A stretch of DNA of 64,000 nt. Source: an uncultured Methanomassiliicoccales archaeon (GTDB taxonomy: Archaea; Thermoplasmatota; Thermoplasmata; RBG-16-68-12; JAJISG01). Location: the NCBI GenBank assembly GCA_964348155.1, contig CAYGBN010000002.1:3520-67519 (forward strand). The letters are read 5' to 3'. Positions 1,247 to 41,327 of the stretch are shown here, piece by piece; the first letter of the stretch is position 1; every line of letters begins with the position of its first letter. The position numbers and the translations under genes are program-made. The notes beneath the pieces are model-generated. The model was not told where the DNA came from. It saw nothing but the letters and a program-made list of their open reading frames with translations, and did not search any database.

Positions 1247-1777
1247 GTGAGAATGGCGGGAAAGCCTTTATCCCGCCCTTCGCGGGAGGTCTCCTTCGTA
1301 GGGAAACCTACAGGAGGACAGAACCTGAGAACGTATACGGCGATCCGAAGGGACCGGAAGGCCGTGTCGCCGGTGATCGCGACCATCCTTATGGTGGCGA
1401 TTACCGTCGTCCTGGCTGCCGTCCTGTACGTGATGGTATCAGGACTGGTCGGGAACCCCGGACAGACGCCGAGAGCCATCGGAGTGGCCGTTAGCAAGAC
1501 GGGCGACGGGTCCAACTGGGCCCTCACCCTCAGCGACGTACAGGTCAGCAAGGCCCCGTCGGCCATCTACCTGACCGTGTTCGCCGCCGACGGCAGCGTT
1601 TCCCTGACCCGGACCGCATTCGCGTCCCTCAGCGGCAACGAGACCTACGTGCAAGTCGGCAGCGGCAACGTCGCAGCGGGTGACAAGATTCTACTCGACG
1701 TCACCACGTACCCGGCCGGCTCCGAGTTCCAGATCTCGGACGACGACGGGATCCTAGCCCAGGGCACCCTGCAGTAG
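1247..1777 (+). CDS. Class III signal peptide protein (archaeal type IV pilin / archaellin-like)
   Basis: Contains RRDRKAVSPVIATILMVAITVVLAAVLYVMVSG, the classic archaeal prepilin/archaellin N-terminal hydrophobic domain. The true start may be internal: the 40 aa upstream of the motif look non-native. Confidence 0.65.
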   Translation: MRMAGKPLSRPSREVSFVGKPTGGQNLRTYTAIRRDRKAVSPVIATILMVAITVVLAAVLYVMVSGLVGNPGQTPRAIGVAVSKTGDGSNWALTLSDVQVSKAPSAIYLTVFAADGSVSLTRTAFASLSGNETYVQVGSGNVAAGDKILLDVTTYPAGSEFQISDDDGILAQGTLQ

Positions 1778-12866: not shown

Positions 12867-13031
12867 GGATCTCACGACGAAACCGCGGCCTTCGGTTAAG
12901 GCTTCCCTCGACGGAGCGGAGGGAGCGGCGGAAAAAGGTGCCAAATGGGTGGGGTTTCAAGGAGGGGGGAGGTTGCCCATTTGACACCCGTCAGTATTCT
13001 ACCGGACGCCTGGATATAAAGCTTTGTCCAC

Positions 13032-14045
13032 TTGTCCGGGACGGCGTTCGACCGAGCCGGGGCGAAGGCGGTTATAGCCCGTGGCCCTTCGGCACCCCGT
13101 GCGGGATCCTGCGGAGGGTCCGGGCTGAGTCGCCTCCAAGACCTCCTTCGGGCCGGCCACTTCGTAGTCACGGCGGAGGTGAACCCCCCAGCCTCCGCGT
13201 CCCTGGCGGACCTTCGAAAGGCGACGGCGGCCATGCGGGGGACCGCGGACGCCTACAACGTGACGGACAACATCCGGGCCTACGTCCGGATGGCCAGCTG
13301 GGCGGGGGCGCTCCTCCTCCTTCGAGAGGGGATGGAGCCCATCCTGCAGATGGTGACTCGGGATCGGAACCGCATCGCCCTGCAGTCCGACCTGCTGGGG
13401 GCGGCGGCCCACGGGGTGCGCAACGTGCTGTGCCTGGGCGGGGACGACCCGAGGAGGGGAGGAGAGCCCAGCGCAAGGGCGGCGGAGGACCTTACCCCGG
13501 AGGACCTGCTGGCGGCCTTCCGTCGGCTTCGGGATGAGGGGGTGCTCCGGGGGGGCGAACGCGTGGAGACCTGGCCGGACGTCTTCCTGGGAGCCGTCTC
13601 CAATCCCTTCGGCGGGAGCTACGCCGTGGGCGCGGACATCCTGGAGCGGCGGGTGGAGGCGGGGGCAGAGTTCGTGCAGACCCAGGCGGTGTTCGACGTG
13701 GAGGGGTTGGAGGCCTACCTGCACGAGGTGCGGGCCCGAAACCTCCACCGGAGGGTGGCCCTCTTGGGCGGCGTGATCCCCTTGAAGTCGGCCAAGATGG
13801 CCCGCTTCCTTGAGGCGAGGGTGGCGGGCATCCGGATGCCCTCCCACGTGGTGGAGCGGATGGAGGGGGCGAGCGACCCGGCGGCGGAGGGGGTCCGGAT
13901 CTGCCTCGAGACCCTGGATGCGGTGCAGGGGCTGGAGGGGCTGGCGGGGGTCCACCTCATGCCCGTGGGATGGGGGGCCCAGGTCGCGGCCATCGTGGAT
14001 CGGGCGGGACTTCTTCCCCGTCCAGACCCCGTTGAAAAGGCTTAA
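13032..14045 (+). CDS. metF: 5,10-methylenetetrahydrofolate reductase (MetF-like)
   Basis: …LSRLQDLLRAGHFVVTAEVNPP… and a MetF TIM-barrel fold throughout. The track start at 13032 (TTG) gives an implausible low-complexity N-terminus. The conserved N-terminus begins at the in-frame CTG at 13125-13127, and no ATG/GTG/TTG is available (see findings). A TATA-like ATATAAAG lies at about 13012. Confidence 0.8.
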   Translation: MSGTAFDRAGAKAVIARGPSAPRAGSCGGSGLSRLQDLLRAGHFVVTAEVNPPASASLADLRKATAAMRGTADAYNVTDNIRAYVRMASWAGALLLLREGMEPILQMVTRDRNRIALQSDLLGAAAHGVRNVLCLGGDDPRRGGEPSARAAEDLTPEDLLAAFRRLRDEGVLRGGERVETWPDVFLGAVSNPFGGSYAVGADILERRVEAGAEFVQTQAVFDVEGLEAYLHEVRARNLHRRVALLGGVIPLKSAKMARFLEARVAGIRMPSHVVERMEGASDPAAEGVRICLETLDAVQGLEGLAGVHLMPVGWGAQVAAIVDRAGLLPRPDPVEKA

Positions 14046-19183: not shown

Positions 19184-21310
19184 ATGGGCAAGGTCCTTAT
19201 CGGGGTGGCCTGGCCCTACGCCAACGCCCCCCGCCACATCGGCCACGCCGCGGGCGCCTACATCCCCGCGGACATCTTCGCCCGCTACCAGCGCATGGCG
19301 GGCAACGACGTCCTCATGGTCAGCGGCAGCGACATGCACGGGACCCCCACCACCGTACGGGCGGAGGAGGAGGGGGTTCCTCCGCAGGAGGTGGCGGAGC
19401 GGTACCACGCCATTCACGTCCAGAGCTTCGAGGACCTGGCCATCTCCTACGACCTCTACTGGAAGACCTCGGATCCCCACCACATGGCCGTGGCGCAGGA
19501 CGTCCTCCGCACCCTCCGGGAGAAGGGCCACGTGTACGAGGAGGAGATGGAGGCCTCGTGGTGTCCCCAGTGCGAGAAGTTCCGGCCCGATCGGTACGTC
19601 GAGGGGGAGTGTCCTCACTGCGGCTTCGCCAAGGCCCGAGGCGACCAGTGCGAGCAGTGCGGCCGGATGCTAGATCCCTTCGACCTGCACGATCCCCACT
19701 GCCAGGTCTGCGGGACGGGCATCGAACGAAAACGCACGCGCCACTTCTTCTTCCGTCTGAGCGGCTTCCAGGAGGCCCTGGAGGACTGGTTGAAGACAAA
19801 GGGCCACTGGCGGACGCACGTGCTCAACTTCGCCCTGGCCTGGTTGAAGGAGGGCCTGCGGGACCGTCCCGTCACCCGGGACATCGATTGGGGCATCCCC
19901 CTCCCATGGGCCGGATACGAGGACAAGCGCATCTACGTGTGGTTTGAGGCCTTCATCGGCTACCTCTCCGCGAGCATCGAGTGGGCCCGGAGGGGGGGAG
20001 AGCTGGACAGTTGGAGGGATTGGTGGTACGACCCGGAGGCACGCCACTACTACTTCGTTGGGAAGGACAACGTCGTCTTCCACACGCTCTTCTGGCCCGC
20101 CGTGCTGATGGGGTACGACGAGGAACTGGACCTGCCCTACGACGTGCCCGCCAACCAGTACATGAACTTCGGCGGGGAGAAGATGTCCGCCGGACGCGGC
20201 GTAGGCGTCTGGCTCCCCGATCTCCTGGAGGCGTACGACCCGGACGCCCTTCGCTACTACGTGGCGGCGGCCATGCCGGAGAACAAGGACACGGAGTTCA
20301 CCTTCCAAGAGCTCGCGCGGCGTGTGAACACGGAGCTGCTGGCCATCTACGGCAACTTCGTCCACCGCGTCCTCACCTTCACCCACAAGGAGTTCGAGAA
20401 AGTTCCCCCGGCCGGTTCCTTGACCCCTGAGGACGAGACGCTCCTCCGGGAGATGGAGGAGGGGTGGAGGCGGGCGGGCCAGAACCTGGCCTATTGCCAC
20501 TTCAAGGACGGGTTGCGGGAGATCATGGCCCTCGCCCGGAAGGGGAACCAGTACTTCGACGCCAGGGCCCCGTGGGACCTGGCCAAGGGAGACCGCGATG
20601 CCTTGGGCACCAGCCTGCGGGTCTCCCTGCGCCTCGTGAAGGCCCTGGCCATCCTCACGGCCCCCTACCTCCCCTTCTCCGCCGATCGGCTCTGGCGCAT
20701 GCTGGGGTACGAGGGGAGCGTCCACGCGGCCTCGTGGGAGGAGGCGCTGGAGGACCTCCCCCAAGGGCAGGCGCTGCCCGACCCGCAACCCCTTTTCGAG
20801 AAGGTCGCCGTGCCACCGGAGCGAGAGGAGGAGGCGGCCCGACTCGACGTCCGGGTTGGCCGCGTCGTGAAGGTCGAGGACCACCCGCGGGCCGACAAGC
20901 TGTACCTGGTCGACGTGGACCTGGGCACGGAGCGTCGACGTCTGGTTGCCGGACTCCGGCAGGAGTACGAGGCCGAAGAGATGGAGGGCCGGCACATCGT
21001 GGTCCTCTGCAACCTGAAGCCCGCCACCCTCCGCGGCATCACCTCCGACGGCATGCTGCTGGCGGCGGTGGACGGCGATGAGGTCTCCCTCCTCCTGGCG
21101 GGGGAGGCACCCCCGGGGACCCAGGTCCTGGGCCGCCCTGACCTGCCGCAGCTCTCCTTCGAGGAGTTTCGGGCCTTGAAGATGCTGGTCGATGAGGAGG
21201 GCCGGGTGGCCTTTGTGGGCTCGGGCGAGGGGGAGGGCGTCCTCCTGCAGGCCGGGGACCATCCCGTCACCGTCGACCGGCCCATCCGCGCCGGGGCCGA
21301 GGTGACCTAG
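19184..21310 (+). CDS. metG: Methionyl-tRNA synthetase with C-terminal EMAP/Trbp111-like tRNA-binding domain
   Basis: PYANAPRHIGHAAG (HIGH motif), Zn knuckle CPQCEKF…CPHCG, KMSAGRG (KMSKS-like). C-terminal OB-fold domain RVGRVVKVEDHPRADKLYLVDVDLG. A TATA-like CATTTAAAT lies about 30 nt upstream. Confidence 0.95.
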   Translation: MGKVLIGVAWPYANAPRHIGHAAGAYIPADIFARYQRMAGNDVLMVSGSDMHGTPTTVRAEEEGVPPQEVAERYHAIHVQSFEDLAISYDLYWKTSDPHHMAVAQDVLRTLREKGHVYEEEMEASWCPQCEKFRPDRYVEGECPHCGFAKARGDQCEQCGRMLDPFDLHDPHCQVCGTGIERKRTRHFFFRLSGFQEALEDWLKTKGHWRTHVLNFALAWLKEGLRDRPVTRDIDWGIPLPWAGYEDKRIYVWFEAFIGYLSASIEWARRGGELDSWRDWWYDPEARHYYFVGKDNVVFHTLFWPAVLMGYDEELDLPYDVPANQYMNFGGEKMSAGRGVGVWLPDLLEAYDPDALRYYVAAAMPENKDTEFTFQELARRVNTELLAIYGNFVHRVLTFTHKEFEKVPPAGSLTPEDETLLREMEEGWRRAGQNLAYCHFKDGLREIMALARKGNQYFDARAPWDLAKGDRDALGTSLRVSLRLVKALAILTAPYLPFSADRLWRMLGYEGSVHAASWEEALEDLPQGQALPDPQPLFEKVAVPPEREEEAARLDVRVGRVVKVEDHPRADKLYLVDVDLGTERRRLVAGLRQEYEAEEMEGRHIVVLCNLKPATLRGITSDGMLLAAVDGDEVSLLLAGEAPPGTQVLGRPDLPQLSFEEFRALKMLVDEEGRVAFVGSGEGEGVLLQAGDHPVTVDRPIRAGAEVT

Positions 21311-21319
21311 ACGCTCCGC

Positions 21320-21979
21320 CTGGACCTCCACACCCACAGCCGGTACTCGCCGGACAGCGTGCTGGAGGTGCGATCCATGCTGCAAGTGGCCAGGGCCCGG
21401 GGCCTCCACGGTCTGGCGGTGACGGACCACAACTCCCTGGGCGGGAGCCAGGAGGCTCTCGAGCTGGCCCGGGGTTCGGATCTCGTCGTCGTCCGCGGGA
21501 TGGAGATCTCCTCCCGGGACGGGCACATCCTGGCGTACGGGGTGGACGAGGAGGTGCCGCGGGGGCTCAACGCCGCGGAGACCGTGCAGCGGATCGAGGA
21601 TCTGGGGGGCCTCGCCGTGGCCGCCCACCCCTACCGATTCTGGTCGGGGTTGCGGGAGGAGGACGTCCGCGCCGCGCGCTTCCAGGCCGTGGAAGCCCTC
21701 AACTCCCGCTCCGTGACGCGGCACAACCGGAGGGCCGGCGCCCTGGGCCGGGAGCTGCAGCTCCCCGTTACGGGAGGCAGCGACGCCCACCGGCTCGCGG
21801 ACATCGGTCGGGCCCTCGTCACGATTCCGAAGGGTGCGGAGAGCGAGGAGGAGGTCCTGCAGGCCCTGCGGAGGGGGGAGGGGCGCCTGGCAGGTTCCAG
21901 TCGCACCTTCGGCCGCACGCTCCGTTACGTCGGGAAGTCCGTCAGCGAGTGGATCTTCAGGGGCTTCCGCAAGATCTAG
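21320..21979 (+). CDS. PHP-domain metal-dependent phosphoesterase (COG0613-like)
   Basis: LDLHTHSRYSPDSVLEV…LAVTDHN…GGSDAH: PHP motifs I-IV. The conserved N-terminal DLHTHS lies upstream of the first ATG (21359). The reading frame continues from the metG TAG stop. The only possible start before the motif is a CTG at 21320. Confidence 0.7.
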   Translation: MDLHTHSRYSPDSVLEVRSMLQVARARGLHGLAVTDHNSLGGSQEALELARGSDLVVVRGMEISSRDGHILAYGVDEEVPRGLNAAETVQRIEDLGGLAVAAHPYRFWSGLREEDVRAARFQAVEALNSRSVTRHNRRAGALGRELQLPVTGGSDAHRLADIGRALVTIPKGAESEEEVLQALRRGEGRLAGSSRTFGRTLRYVGKSVSEWIFRGFRKI

Positions 21980-27430: not shown

Positions 27431-28384
27431 TTACTTCCAGACGCGGGGATAGGTCCCCGGCTTCATGAGGACGCGCGATGGGTTGGCGGCGATGCCGCGG
27501 CCCGCGGAGACCATCCGCTCGGAGCCCATGGCGGCGACCCCTACGGCCACGGCCTCGCCCTGACGGGTGAGGATCCGGACGACCGTGCCCTCCACGATGC
27601 CCCGATCCACTCGCAACAGGCCCGGCGCCGCCAGGGGTGCGCCGTGGCAGAGGGCGTCCACGGCCGTGTCCTTCACCACGACCTGCGGCAGGTGGGTGAG
27701 CATGTGCTCCACGGGATGGAGGAGCGTCGGGAGCTCCCCCTTCCCCTCCTCCCGCCATCGGACCAGGGCGTCCCGCAGGTGAACGAGGGGAACCGCCTGG
27801 TCCTCGGCGAGGTCCGCCGTCCGCGTCCTCCGCAGGTCTTGGAGGTGGGCTCCCACGCCCAGCGCCTCCCCCACGTCCACGCAGAGGGTGCGCACGTACG
27901 TGCCCGCCTCGCACCGCGCGCGGAAGAGGTGGTCTCGCCCCCGCCGTTCCAGGATCTCCAGCGCGTGGACTCGCCGCACGCGGAGCTCCCGCTTCACGGC
28001 GGCCCGGACCGGCGGCGTCTGGTAGATCTCCCCCACGAACTCCCGCAGGACGTCCCGCACGCTCTCCTCGGGCACGTCCTGGTGGAGCCGAAGGACGCCC
28101 ACGTACTCCTTGTCCCCTGCGTGGAGGGCGTCCACCGCCCGAACGGCCTCGTTGAGGGCCACAGGAAGGACGCCCGTGACCCGGGGATCGAGGGTCCCGC
28201 CGTGGGCCGTCTTCCCCACGTCCAGCATGTCCCGCACCCAAGCGGAGACCTGGTGGGACGTGGGGCCCTGGGGCTTGTCCACCACCACCACGCCTGCCCG
28301 GAGGATTTCCTCCACGGTTCGCTCCTGGGGGGGCTTCCCGTAGCGGGTGGGGCTCAGGTCCTCCACGCGCTCGAGGGCGCTCAC
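27431..28384 (-). CDS. cbf5: tRNA/rRNA pseudouridine synthase Cbf5 (TruB family with PUA domain)
   Basis: …VVVVDKPQGPTSHQVSAWVRDML…GHGGTLDPRVTGVL… (TruB catalytic Asp) with a C-terminal PUA domain. Confidence 0.9.
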   Translation of the reverse strand: MSALERVEDLSPTRYGKPPQERTVEEILRAGVVVVDKPQGPTSHQVSAWVRDMLDVGKTAHGGTLDPRVTGVLPVALNEAVRAVDALHAGDKEYVGVLRLHQDVPEESVRDVLREFVGEIYQTPPVRAAVKRELRVRRVHALEILERRGRDHLFRARCEAGTYVRTLCVDVGEALGVGAHLQDLRRTRTADLAEDQAVPLVHLRDALVRWREEGKGELPTLLHPVEHMLTHLPQVVVKDTAVDALCHGAPLAAPGLLRVDRGIVEGTVVRILTRQGEAVAVGVAAMGSERMVSAGRGIAANPSRVLMKPGTYPRVWK

Positions 28385-38092: not shown

Positions 38093-38428
38093 CTATGACA
38101 GCAGCTTCCGGAAGCGGAGGGTGTCCTCGAGGGACGCCTTCACCCTGAGCTTTCCCGTGGCCAGAGCCTTGAAGGGGGCGATCTCCCGGGCGATGACGCC
38201 CCGGAGAACCTCCTCGTCGGCGGTGATGGTCAGATCGGCGTCGCCCTGCGCCTGGCCCTCCTCCAAGTCCACGATCTGGCCCTCCTCCAGCCGCATGTTA
38301 TACGTGGCCCTGTCCGTCACCACCTGAATGCGCTTCACCATGCCCGCCAGCTCCTCTTGCATGCGAGGGTTCGTTCGGGCCCGCTCGTTGAAGCGCCGGA
38401 TGAGGTCCTCCAGAAGGTCGCGCACGCT
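38093..38428 (-). CDS. SCP2 (sterol carrier protein 2-like) domain protein
   Basis: …NPRMQEELAGMVKRIQVVTDRATYNMRLEEGQIVDLEEG…KALATGKLRVKASLEDTLRFRKL. SCP2 fold. Start assigned to an internal GTG. The rest of the track ORF is artefact overlapping rnhB. Confidence 0.6.
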   Translation of the reverse strand, partial: SVRDLLEDLIRRFNERARTNPRMQEELAGMVKRIQVVTDRATYNMRLEEGQIVDLEEGQAQGDADLTITADEEVLRGVIAREIAPFKALATGKLRVKASLEDTLRFRKLLS

Positions 38429-39071
38429 ACCACTCCGTGAGCTTTCGCAGCTTGGCCCGGGCCAGCAGGCGCTGGGAGGTTCTCCACGCCCGCCGGGCGT
38501 GGGGGGGCACGTCCCCTTGCTCCCGCACCCATGCCCGCAGGAAGGCCACGGTCTGGGGGTCGTGGGCGTAGCCGCTCCCCACGGGCTGCCCAAGCTCCGC
38601 ACCGATGCGCTCCATCTCCTCGTCCCGCCGAACCTTCGCCACGATGGAGGCGGCAGAGACCACCGGGTGCCGTTCGTCCGCCCCATGCTCCGACCGCAGC
38701 GGGAGGTCGTAGCCCACGCCCCGGAGGATCTGGCGTCGAAATCGGGCCTCGGAGGTGTCGCAGCAATCCACCACGACCTCGTCAGGGGCCAGGGCCCGAA
38801 TGACGTCCGCGAAGAGGGTCGCCTCCAAGAGGTTGAGGGAGGTCGCGTCCATCCCTCGGTCCAACTCCGCCGCGGAGACCACGCGAACCTGGCACTCCGC
38901 CACCGCCTGGACCTCCTGGGCCAGGCCTCGTCTTCGCTGGGGAGTCAACCGCTTGGAGTCCCGAACGCCCAGAGACCGCAGGGAGCCGGGGTCCGTGGTC
39001 AGGACTCCCGCCACGACCAAGGGCCCCAGGACGGGGCCGCGTCCCGCCTCGTCGACGCCCAGAACCCTCAG
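38427..39071 (-). CDS. rnhB: Ribonuclease HII
   Basis: …LRVLGVDEAGRGPVLGPLVVAGVL…DSKRLTP…VDCCDTSEARF…SAASIVAKVRRD. RNase HII catalytic residues are present. The N-terminus begins at an in-frame CTG (39069-39071) that overlaps the upstream gene's TGA (CTGA). No ATG/GTG/TTG is available. Confidence 0.8.
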   Translation of the reverse strand: MRVLGVDEAGRGPVLGPLVVAGVLTTDPGSLRSLGVRDSKRLTPQRRRGLAQEVQAVAECQVRVVSAAELDRGMDATSLNLLEATLFADVIRALAPDEVVVDCCDTSEARFRRQILRGVGYDLPLRSEHGADERHPVVSAASIVAKVRRDEEMERIGAELGQPVGSGYAHDPQTVAFLRAWVREQGDVPPHARRAWRTSQRLLARAKLRKLTEW

Positions 39072-40339
39072 GGGGCCACCTCCCGACGCAGGCCCTCCAC
39101 ATCCTCCCGCAGGGCCGCGACGTCGACTCCGGTGAGTGCGCCGTTCTCCACCACGATCCGCCCCTCCACGACGACGTCCCTCACCTGACCTCCCTCCGCC
39201 AGATACACCAGGTAGGATAAGACCTCCGACGGATCGCGGGGGGGCCGCCGGCCCCGGAGATCGAGGACGACCACATCGGCGACGGTGCCCGCCTGGAGGG
39301 ATCCCCCCTCCAACCCCAGGACCTTCGCCCCGCCCCGGGTGCAGAGGTCCAGCACGAGGGAAGCCGTGGCGGCCCCCGGGTCCCACCGCGCGGCCTTGTG
39401 CTGGCCTGCGCAACCCCGCATGTGCTGGAAGAGGTCCAGGGTGCCGACCTGGGCGGGGGAGGCCGTGCCCAGGGCGACGGAGACGCCCTCCGCCCGCACC
39501 TCCGGCAGGGCCAGGCTGCCTCCCGTTCCACCCATGGCGTCGGCCAGGGGGCAGTGGACGACCTGCGCCCCGGATCGGCCGAGGGCGCGAATCTCGTTCA
39601 AGGTGAGCCAGACGGCGTGAAGGGCCAGGAGACGGGGGGAAAGGAGGCCGCGGGCCTCCAGCCAGGCTCCGGGCCGGTCGCCCGTGGCACGCTGGAAGCG
39701 GTAGACCTCGCGGCGGGTGCGGGCCAGGGGCAGGCACCATCGCAGGCCCCGATCCTCCGCGAAGGCCGCCACCTCCTCCAAGAGGGCAGGGTCCTCCGGG
39801 TTCGCGACCCCCACCGAGGGTTCCACACGGTCCCACGCCTGTACGCGGGCAAGCCCCTTGGCGCACCCCTCCAGCTCTTCGGGGGAGGCCACCTCCCAGC
39901 AGGGGAAGCCTCGGCTCCCCACCTGCGTCACGGCGCGGGCCAGCTCCTCCGCCCCTGGGAAGAGGTCGAGAAAGGACGTCGTTCCCCCAAGGAGCATCTC
40001 CGCAGCGGCCGCGGCCGCGGCGAGCTCCACGTCCCGACGGGTGAGGTTCTCCCGCAGAAGGCGGCGGCGCTCGCGCAGGTCCTCCGGAGGAAGGTCGCGG
40101 GGCGGGCCCAGCAGGAGGTCGACGGCCCGCGTGTAGGCGTTGACGAGCCCCGGGAGCACGAGGCATCCCGCGGCGTCCAGGACGTGGTCCGCGCCCTGGT
40201 CCGCGCCCCGTTCGGGTCCGGCGACCTCCGCCACGCGCCCGCCCTCCACGTAGAGGTTGCCCTCCACCACCCGGCGGCCGTCGTCCTGGGTGACCAGAAG
40301 GCCCCCCTTCACCAGGAGGGACACGCCCGGAGCCATCCC
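39068..40339 (-). CDS. Amidohydrolase-family deaminase/chlorohydrolase (MtaD/SsnA/TrzA-like)
   Basis: MAPGVSLLVKGGLLVT…VLPGLVNAYTR (metal-binding)…HAVWL…HCPLADAM. Amidohydrolase_1 fold. Confidence 0.7.
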   Translation of the reverse strand, partial: GMAPGVSLLVKGGLLVTQDDGRRVVEGNLYVEGGRVAEVAGPERGADQGADHVLDAAGCLVLPGLVNAYTRAVDLLLGPPRDLPPEDLRERRRLLRENLTRRDVELAAAAAAAEMLLGGTTSFLDLFPGAEELARAVTQVGSRGFPCWEVASPEELEGCAKGLARVQAWDRVEPSVGVANPEDPALLEEVAAFAEDRGLRWCLPLARTRREVYRFQRATGDRPGAWLEARGLLSPRLLALHAVWLTLNEIRALGRSGAQVVHCPLADAMGGTGGSLALPEVRAEGVSVALGTASPAQVGTLDLFQHMRGCAGQHKAARWDPGAATASLVLDLCTRGGAKVLGLEGGSLQAGTVADVVVLDLRGRRPPRDPSEVLSYLVYLAEGGQVRDVVVEGRIVVENGALTGVDVAALREDVEGLRREVAP

Positions 40340-40393: not shown

Positions 40394-41327
40394 GGTGCGC
40401 GTGGACTTTCTCCGGGAGGTGCGCGCCCTCCTGCGGCAGGTCCCGCGGGGACGCGTGACGAGCTTCAAGGCCGTGGCCGAAGCGCTGGGAGATGTCCGGG
40501 CCGCGAAGGCGGTCCGACAGGTCCTCCGCGAGGCGCGTCCCGAGGGGTGGCACCGCGTCGTGCGGGCCGACGGCGGCCTCTCCTTCCCGGAGGCCCGCGC
40601 GCCCCTCCAGGAGGAGGGGGTGCCCGTGACCGACGGGCGGGTGGAGGGCTTCACGGCACGGAAGCTAGACGCCCTCGCCTCCACGCACCCCCTCCGGGCC
40701 CTCCGGGAGGAGCAGCGCAACCTGGCTCGTCGCGTCCGCCTGGAGGACGCCCCCGAGGAGGGGGGAACGGTGGCGGGGTTCGACGTCGCCTACGAGGGGG
40801 AGCGGGCCTACGCTGCGGCGGTTGTCGTGGCCCCGGACAGCCTGGAGGTGCTTCAGCAAGTCGCCCTCACCACCCCGGTCACCTTCCCCTACGTGCCCAC
40901 ATACCTGGCCCATCGCGAGTGGGGGCCCCTCGCCCGCTGCTACGAGCGCCTTGAGGATCCCCTGGCCCTCCTCCTGGTTGACGGCAACGGAATCCTCCAT
41001 CCGGCGCGCTTCGGCATCGCCTGTCTCGTGGGCGTCCGCACGGGACGTCCCACCGTGGGGGTGGCCAAGAGCCTCCTCCTGGGGGAGGTGGCAGGGGCTC
41101 CGGGGCCCGGGGAGGCGGCGGAGGTGCGGCACCAAGAGGACATCCTGGGCTACGCCTTTCGGCCGGCCGAGGGAAAGCCCATCTACATCTCCCCCGGCCA
41201 CCGCATTAGCCTGGCCACGGCTCTGGAGCGCGTCCGAGGGCTCTGTCGCCAGCGCATCCCGGAGCCCCTCCGCCTGGCCCACCGCGCCTGCAGCCAGCTG
41301 CGCCGCGAGGGGGCGCAGGGGTCTTAA
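40394..41327 (+). CDS. nfi: Alkyltransferase-like (MGMT DNA-binding domain with Trp in place of the active-site Cys) fused to endonuclease V
   Basis: N-terminus …VTSFKAVAEALGDVRAAKAVRQVLREARPEGWHRVVRADGGLSF is MGMT-fold, with WHRVV where Ogt has PCHRVV. C-terminus GFDVAYEGERAYAAAVV…PYVPTYLAHREWGP…LLVDGNGILHPARFGIACLVGV…PTVGVAKS is EndoV (catalytic D/E/D/H/K present). GTG start at about 40394-40400. Confidence 0.75.

Follow-up and report, generated by a model that had tools for sequence, protein, structure and literature searches.

CTG is a listed but rare start codon in genetic code table 11, and CUG initiation, well known in eukaryotes, is a rarity in bacteria. Across 36 triplets of prokaryotic genomes, switches from AUG to CUG were found at about 3e-5 per AUG start (PMC5622118). 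For archaea, the starts accepted as established are limited to AUG, GUG, and UUG (PMC4705826); ribosome profiling of Haloferax volcanii found about 30% near-cognate codons among alternative initiation sites, and these near-cognate sites were set aside (PMC7261190), a CTG start is suspected in haloarchaea for HVO_1510 (PMC8305020), and CTG-initiated small haloarchaeal proteins have been detected by mass spectrometry (PMC12482152). A literature search on non-canonical starts in Thermoplasmata returned nothing. Here we describe the start of rnhB, the gene for the DNA-repair enzyme ribonuclease HII (RNase HII), in a 64,000-nucleotide stretch of the archaeal contig CAYGBN010000002.1 (the window), which has a G+C content of 68.5% and encodes proteins that match those of uncultured Thermoplasmata. 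We consider it likely that rnhB is translated from a CUG codon at 39071-39069 of the minus strand, directed by a Shine-Dalgarno (SD) sequence, assisted by an overlap with the upstream gene, and read as methionine.

Like the rare bacterial CUG starts, the rnhB codon is a near-cognate of AUG in first position behind an SD sequence, presumably read by the initiator tRNA. It differs from them in its archaeal host, with eukaryotic-type initiation factors (aIF1, aIF2), and in its distribution: three diverged genomes keep the CTG, which turns up again on a second branch, and the same 64 kb hold other non-canonical starts as well. The haloarchaeal cases share with rnhB an inferred CTG or near-cognate start in an archaeal gene; they are isolated or unresolved, whereas rnhB, while known from sequence alone, can be compared among orthologues. 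To the few unresolved cases on which archaeal CUG initiation has so far rested, rnhB adds a housekeeping enzyme with a fixed, structurally defined N-terminus, and it appears to be a new, comparatively well-supported case of a known rare kind.

The second point of comparison is the NTGA gene pair. Termination-reinitiation at NTGA overlaps has been shown in H. volcanii, where the intragenic SD contributes to varying extents (Huber et al. 2019, PMC6728339), and coupling at overlapping genes has been reviewed (PMC12548453). As in the NTGA pairs of H. volcanii and Escherichia coli, rnhB is co-directional with its upstream neighbor, an amidohydrolase gene, the stop and start share 2 nt within a 4-nt overlap (CTGA 39071-39068), and the SD lies inside the upstream gene. 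Unlike in those pairs, N is C, which yields none of ATG, GTG, or TTG, and coupling at rnhB is proposed by analogy. A sequence-only reading of the window had argued from this junction, and from like junctions elsewhere, that the CTG is a genuine start. Re-reading both frames confirmed the minus-strand CTG and its 2-nt overlap with the amidohydrolase TGA; the like junctions are also real (ATGA 9225, GTGA 29977, GTGA 30346, and GTGA 49391, the last having been placed a few bases off at ~49386), and a further GTGA at 28384 brings the canonical examples in the window to five. As evidence, the overlap motif carries little weight: C precedes 10 of the 26 TGA stops of predicted window genes, and CTGA is common by chance because codons of the CCC type, rich in G+C at third positions (GC3), dominate. 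The CTG is upheld as a very probable start; the junction architecture is weak evidence for it, and the significance of this codon derives from homology and comparative data and not from a tetranucleotide motif.

The proposed first codon of rnhB and its counterparts in relatives

On the minus strand, the amidohydrolase gene ends cgg gag gtg gcc ccc TGA (R E V A P stop; the protein ends ...RREVAP), and the C of the rnhB CTG is the third base of its last codon, CCC (Pro). The rnhB frame, -1 relative to that of the amidohydrolase, reads CTG (39071-39069) followed by RVLGVDEAGRGP; its first codons are CTG AGG GTT CTG GGC GTC GAC GAG GCG GGA CGC GGC CCC (L R V L G V D E A G R G P). Between GTG 39386 and codon 18 this frame holds no ATG, GTG, or TTG. 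That GTG, the nearest canonical start on the 5' side, lies 105 codons upstream within the amidohydrolase gene; the nearest on the 3' side, TTG at codon 18 and GTG at codon 20, both lie beyond the DEAGRG catalytic motif, so that any canonical downstream start would cost the protein D7 and E8.

The predicted product is a complete archaeal-type RNase HII. It scores 194.2 bits against TIGR00729 (cutoff 123.3), with residues 3-203 covering profile positions 1-206 of 207, and 148.6 bits against PF01351, with residues 4-198 covering positions 1-198 of 199. Residue 2 aligns with residue 2 of the solved enzymes from Thermococcus kodakarensis (1IO2, 2DFE) and Pyrococcus horikoshii (1UAX), and the CTG therefore occupies the Met1 position. 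Residues D7, E8, D102, H129, and D132, whose catalytic role we take from the known T. kodakarensis enzyme (Tk-RNase HII; D7, E8, D105, H132, D135), are intact and invariant among 20 clade members. In full-length match, N-terminal position, and catalytic residues, rnhB is like the archaeal-type enzymes described by TIGR00729, 1IO2, and 1UAX; it is unlike them in its start codon only.

The same codon was then read in related loci (L001-L010; percentages give identity to the window). CTG within CTGA recurs in L001 (90%; upstream protein ending ...REVAP, as in the window; assembly from SRR20218960) and L002 (82%; ...REVFP; assembly from SRR17165172). Elsewhere, in the comparison that the sequence-only reading had proposed, canonical codons replace CTG at this very position: GTG in L009/L010 (64%), within a GTGA of the same overlap geometry as in the window, ATG in L003/L004 (74%) and L008 (72%), and TTG in L005/L006 (74%), the ATG and TTG loci having a 20-nt overlap in the other frame. 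L007 (69%) combines this 20-nt overlap, also in the other frame, with a CTG, and no canonical start codon was found between its codon 1 and Asp7. A different conserved upstream start of rnhB, which would have spoken against the CTG, was not found in the relatives.

A neighbor-joining tree joins L007 with the TTG-bearing L005 as sisters and sets it apart from the clade of the window, L001, and L002; for this reason the rnhB CTG appears to have two origins. Loci with CTG rank among those richest in G+C (0.70-0.75 per locus, rnhB GC3 0.87-0.98), the ATG and GTG loci have a G+C of 0.59-0.63, and the TTG locus, at 0.705 (GC3 0.92), falls within the CTG range. The codon most likely derives from ATG, GTG, or TTG through one substitution at the first base, while GC pressure on the lineage was strong, and would have been tolerated since. 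As a comparative case rnhB is a clean one: the CTG is kept over ~0.5 synonymous substitutions per site, appears to arise twice, and exchanges with ATG, GTG, and TTG.

L001 and L002 share the SD sequence of the window, GGGAGGTG, without a change. Paired with GAUCACCUCCU, an assumed archaeal anti-SD used for all duplex energies, it forms a duplex of -14.8 kcal/mol, the third strongest among the 39 window starts tested. It constitutes a 7-mer at the modal spacing of canonical starts in the window, and GGAGGTG at comparable spacing precedes just 3 of 956 internal CTG codons. The SD motif was also tried as a start predictor by itself and rejected as not discriminating, the shorter GGAGG occurring 5-9 nt before 5.6% of internal CTG codons. 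Among relatives, duplex energies are -14.8 to -15.6 kcal/mol for the CTG clade (window, L001, L002), -11.1 for the CTG of L007, -10.6 for the TTG of L005, -9.2 and -7.6 for the ATGs of L003 and L008, and -7.2 for the GTG of L009; in this small sample of phylogenetically dependent loci, SD strength is inverse to start-codon quality. The trend agrees with the tighter SD conservation reported for weaker start codons (PMC5622118).

In a consensus fold of 39068-39085 (minus strand) with L001 and L002, the SD (CGGGAGG) is paired to CCCCTG, which includes the proposed start codon. Ribosomes completing the amidohydrolase would open this small hairpin; it has no covariation, one of its pairs is broken in L002, and it is a hint only. 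Scans of the window found no tRNA and no Rfam family.

Selection, alternative readings, and a proposed mechanism

How firmly the start can be assigned to codon 1 depends on what other codons could do. Initiation at another nearby non-canonical codon of the rnhB frame, such as the CTG at codon 4 (39062) or AGG or GTT at codons 2-3, is unlikely. At codon 4 the window and L001 have CTG and L002 has GTG, and the Pfam profile does not take in the first three residues; however, codon 4 encodes a conserved Leu throughout the relatives, even where codon 1 is ATG, a start there would place the SD 14 nt away, off the modal spacing of canonical window starts, and homologues and solved structures begin at codon 1.

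Substitution patterns mark where coding begins. The phase of variable columns flips at the CTG, where the rnhB frame takes over from that of the amidohydrolase: on the 5' side, 40 of 76 variable columns fall on amidohydrolase third codon positions, and on the 3' side 40 of 65 fall on rnhB third positions. In the first 60 nt past the CTG there are 4, 0, and 11 variable columns at codon positions 1, 2, and 3, and codons 2-6 differ between genomes only synonymously or conservatively (V/I, L/V). Among the three CTG genomes (window, L001, L002), the ratio of nonsynonymous to synonymous substitution rates (dN/dS) is 0.11-0.22 at a dS of about 0.5. Judged by these patterns, rnhB is under purifying selection downstream of the CTG in the CTG genomes, with none in its frame on the 5' side, and the ratio, the phase flip, and the constraint on codons 2-6 together argue that it is translated from codon 1 or very near it, also while codon 1 is CTG.

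The same data bear on the notion that rnhB is decaying, or that it yields an N-terminally truncated product from TTG codon 18, GTG codon 20, or GTG codon 57. Automated gene calls do pick such starts: P0121 (195 aa) begins at codon 20 and P0005 (158 aa, 99% identical) at codon 57, and rnhB is dispensable in some archaea. Yet truncated products would lack the catalytic Asp7 and Glu8, the dN/dS sustained over a dS of about 0.5 speaks against decay, and change in codons 1-20 falls mostly on third positions and never on second. The short calls are explained by the gene caller Prodigal, which considers ATG, GTG, and TTG only and never CTG (PMC2848648). We hold decay or truncation to be very unlikely.

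A slightly slimmer chance still attaches to rnhB being made as a C-terminal fusion to the amidohydrolase, by a -1 frameshift or transcriptional slippage on the C-run (GCC CCC UGA), with tRNA-Pro re-pairing and CUG read as Leu. A run of C does directly precede the stop (5 in the window, 4 in L002), and slow decoding of the stop codon in the A site could favor slippage. The run is unconserved, however, at 5, 3, and 4 nt in the window, L001, and L002; L001 reads GCG CCC TGA, with only 3 C, so that re-pairing would be mismatched, the junction holds no X XXY YYZ slippery heptamer, and the downstream structure has no covariation support (term +0.67). The amidohydrolase genes of L007, L005, L003, and L008 stop 20 nt downstream in the other frame, which would call for a different shift, and L007 still has CTG. 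None of 120 listed homologues (158-239 aa) is long enough for an amidohydrolase-rnhB fusion, and relatives plainly initiate at codon 1 with ATG, GTG, or TTG.

An error of sequencing, assembly, or consensus could have turned a GTG, ATG, or TTG into the CTG, and one wrong base in this metagenome-assembled genome (MAG) would suffice, but the probability of this is negligible: independent assemblies from different samples (L001 and L002) carry the same CTG and CTGA amid many synonymous differences, CTG is also present in L007, and a frameshift or sequencing error, either of which would have undone the sequence-only proposal, is thereby excluded.

Initiation at the CUG of codon 1 is likely to proceed as follows. 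The amidohydrolase, rnhB, and SCP2 genes would form a conserved transcription unit with rnhB as an internal cistron. An unusually strong SD duplex (GGGAGGUG, 5-nt spacer) would place the small ribosomal subunit on the weak CUG, which the initiator tRNA would presumably decode as Met. Ribosomes that finish on the overlapping amidohydrolase UGA probably assist, by termination-reinitiation or by local unfolding, with the SD and the coupling each contributing some share.

Several observations weigh against this proposal. For the upstream gene, the C of the CTG stands at a four-fold degenerate position, and 27% of Pro codons are CCG; one synonymous step (CCC to CCG) would give GTG, which was never fixed in three lineages. 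The unfixed GTG fits tolerance of the CTG or selection for low expression and is no proof of function. The sisters offer alternative starts, a GTG at codon 4 in L002 and a GTG at codon 6 in L001. The anti-SD was not read from this genome, the window having no 16S rRNA gene. Archaeal aIF1 is reported to discriminate in vitro against at least one non-AUG codon, AUU (PMC4705826), and CUG is a poor initiator where measured, at 1-2% of AUG in E. coli (bioRxiv 10.1101/063800). Because of that figure, the yield of rnhB is probably low, unless the lineage discriminates less.

Further probable non-canonical starts in the window

Two other genes of the window point to starts outside the canonical set, and a third does so tentatively. 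The first is metF, which encodes methylenetetrahydrofolate reductase (MTHFR). The MTHFR profile begins 2 codons past its CTG, with GGAGGG 7 nt and a TATA box about 105 nt upstream. The sister locus L103 (1385-1503; 90% lineage) carries GTG at this codon behind an unchanged SD and promoter, including the conserved box GGATATAAAG, and a third lineage (L104/L105) has CTG at this codon plus a TTG six codons upstream. As metF is the first cistron behind its own promoter and lies outside any stop/start overlap, coupling would play no part in its use of CTG. Together with L007, where the overlap is 20 nt and in the other frame, metF indicates that the 4-nt overlap is not needed for CTG use.

The second gene encodes a PHP / CehA-McbA metallohydrolase. 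The sequence-only reading had named it as a companion case; a non-canonical start is upheld, and the codon differs from the one assumed, since homologues of 222 aa begin MLRLDLHTHS and put Met1 on an ACG, with the CTG as codon 4. The open reading frame (ORF) has no canonical start before codon 23, where initiation would drop the HxH motif. It follows directly on the TAG of metG in the same frame, and an SD, GAGGTGA, ends 5 nt before the ACG. The 15-nt junction TAG-ACG-CTC-CGC-CTG (window 21308-21322) is identical in L106 (202-216) and L107 (1994-2008). We take the start to be ACG or CTG; read-through of the TAG into a fusion of methionyl-tRNA synthetase (MetRS) and PHP is less likely. TAG is reassigned in some Thermoplasmata relatives (Methanomassiliicoccales). 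It is the commonest stop among the 72 predicted window genes (40 TAG, 26 TGA, 6 TAA), which makes read-through or pyrrolysine at the metG-PHP junction unlikely as a genome-wide feature, and there is no sign of TAG reassignment in this lineage.

The third, a tentative type IV pilin, plausibly starts at CTG 1325, which gives a typical 13-residue class III leader (MRTYTAIRRDRKA/VSPVI); the sole canonical alternative, ATG 1253, would make the leader 37 residues long and lies 5' of a TATA-like CCTTTATCC. About 38 other genes share canonical starts with loci of sister lineages, and the remaining window genes have canonical candidates at the coding boundary. Three further CTG candidates were rejected: 22946 in a methyltransferase gene, whose real start is ATG 22838, 37814 in a KaiC gene, which starts at ATG 37805, and one in the PGI gene, which starts at GTG 26227. 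The share of non-canonical starts would be roughly 4-8%, counted as 3 of ~41 sister-comparable genes or 3-4 of 72 predicted window genes.

Taken together, rnhB, metF, and the PHP hydrolase gene suggest that start-codon stringency can relax in GC-rich archaeal lineages. We put forward only tentatively, as a possibility that at present looks doubtful, that CUG and possibly ACG are regular SD-dependent starts in this GC-rich Thermoplasmata clade, with discrimination relaxed across the lineage; such a relaxation might come about through altered aIF1, initiator tRNA, or initiator tRNA modification. Were this so, standard gene callers would cut short or overlook proteins systematically in MAGs of this kind. 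In the deposited data, callers limited to ATG, GTG, and TTG truncated all three proteins, which distorts functional and completeness inference from MAGs: besides the RNase HII calls, the MetF call P0124 (100% identical) is cut to 270 aa, and the PHP call P0244 (100% identical, 200 aa) lacks the DLHTHS motif. The RNase HII and PHP calls lose catalytic or metal-binding residues (HxH in PHP), and calls from sister genomes are truncated likewise (P0001, P0002, P0033, P0245, P0246).

Gene neighborhood and distant rnhB loci

Gene order is kept in all fetched relatives, with ApbA and endonuclease V (EndoV) genes on one strand and amidohydrolase-rnhB-SCP2-KaiC-KaiC-FtsZ on the other. Coordinates are collected in Table 1.

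Table 1. Positions of the rnhB start region, its neighbors, and other genes with proposed non-canonical starts, in window coordinates.
Feature	Position	Strand	Start and remarks
Proposed rnhB initiation codon CTG (codon 1)	39069..39071	-	Met1 alignment and relatives' codons
TGA stop of upstream amidohydrolase	39068..39070	-	Shares 2 nt with the rnhB CTG (CTGA)
Shine-Dalgarno sequence	39077..39084	-	5 nt before CTG, within amidohydrolase C-terminus (RREV)
Predicted rnhB coding sequence, archaeal-type RNase HII	38427..39071	-	214 codons plus TAG (38429-38427)
TRZ/ATZ-type metal-dependent amidohydrolase (Pfam Amidohydro_1), upstream cistron	39068..40336	-	ATG 40336
SCP2-domain protein, downstream cistron	38093..38425	-	GTG 38425, 1 nt past the rnhB TAG; synteny
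DNA_binding_1-EndoV fusion, divergent neighbor	40401-41327	+	
metF (MTHFR)	13125..14045	+	Best start CTG 13125-13127; SD GGAGGG 13113-13118; TATA box ~13013-13021
PHP / CehA-McbA metallohydrolase	21311..21979	+	Met1 on ACG 21311-21313; CTG 21320-21322 is codon 4
Type IV pilin, tentative	1325..1777	+	Plausible start CTG 1325-1327; AGGAGG 7 nt upstream

In the divergent neighbor, a DNA_binding_1 (MGMT-like) domain is fused to EndoV. This fusion was found in L002, L005, and L008; EndoV stands alone in L003 and L009.

A scan of genome contigs with a single RNase HII protein returned distant RNase HII genes only (haloarchaea, Bathyarchaeia, bacteria). A scan of metagenome contigs with the clade alignment matched largely on generic motifs, with identity of at most 49% among the matches listed, and served only as a background census. 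The frame of one distant RNase HII locus, L066 (2438-2524; G+C 0.53; metagenome Ga0209061), is open for 22 codons ahead of DEAGRG and lacks ATG, GTG, and TTG there, with a CTG 10 codons upstream; its relative L055 (2450-2524) has a GTG 6 codons upstream, and L066 may hold another non-canonical rnhB start.

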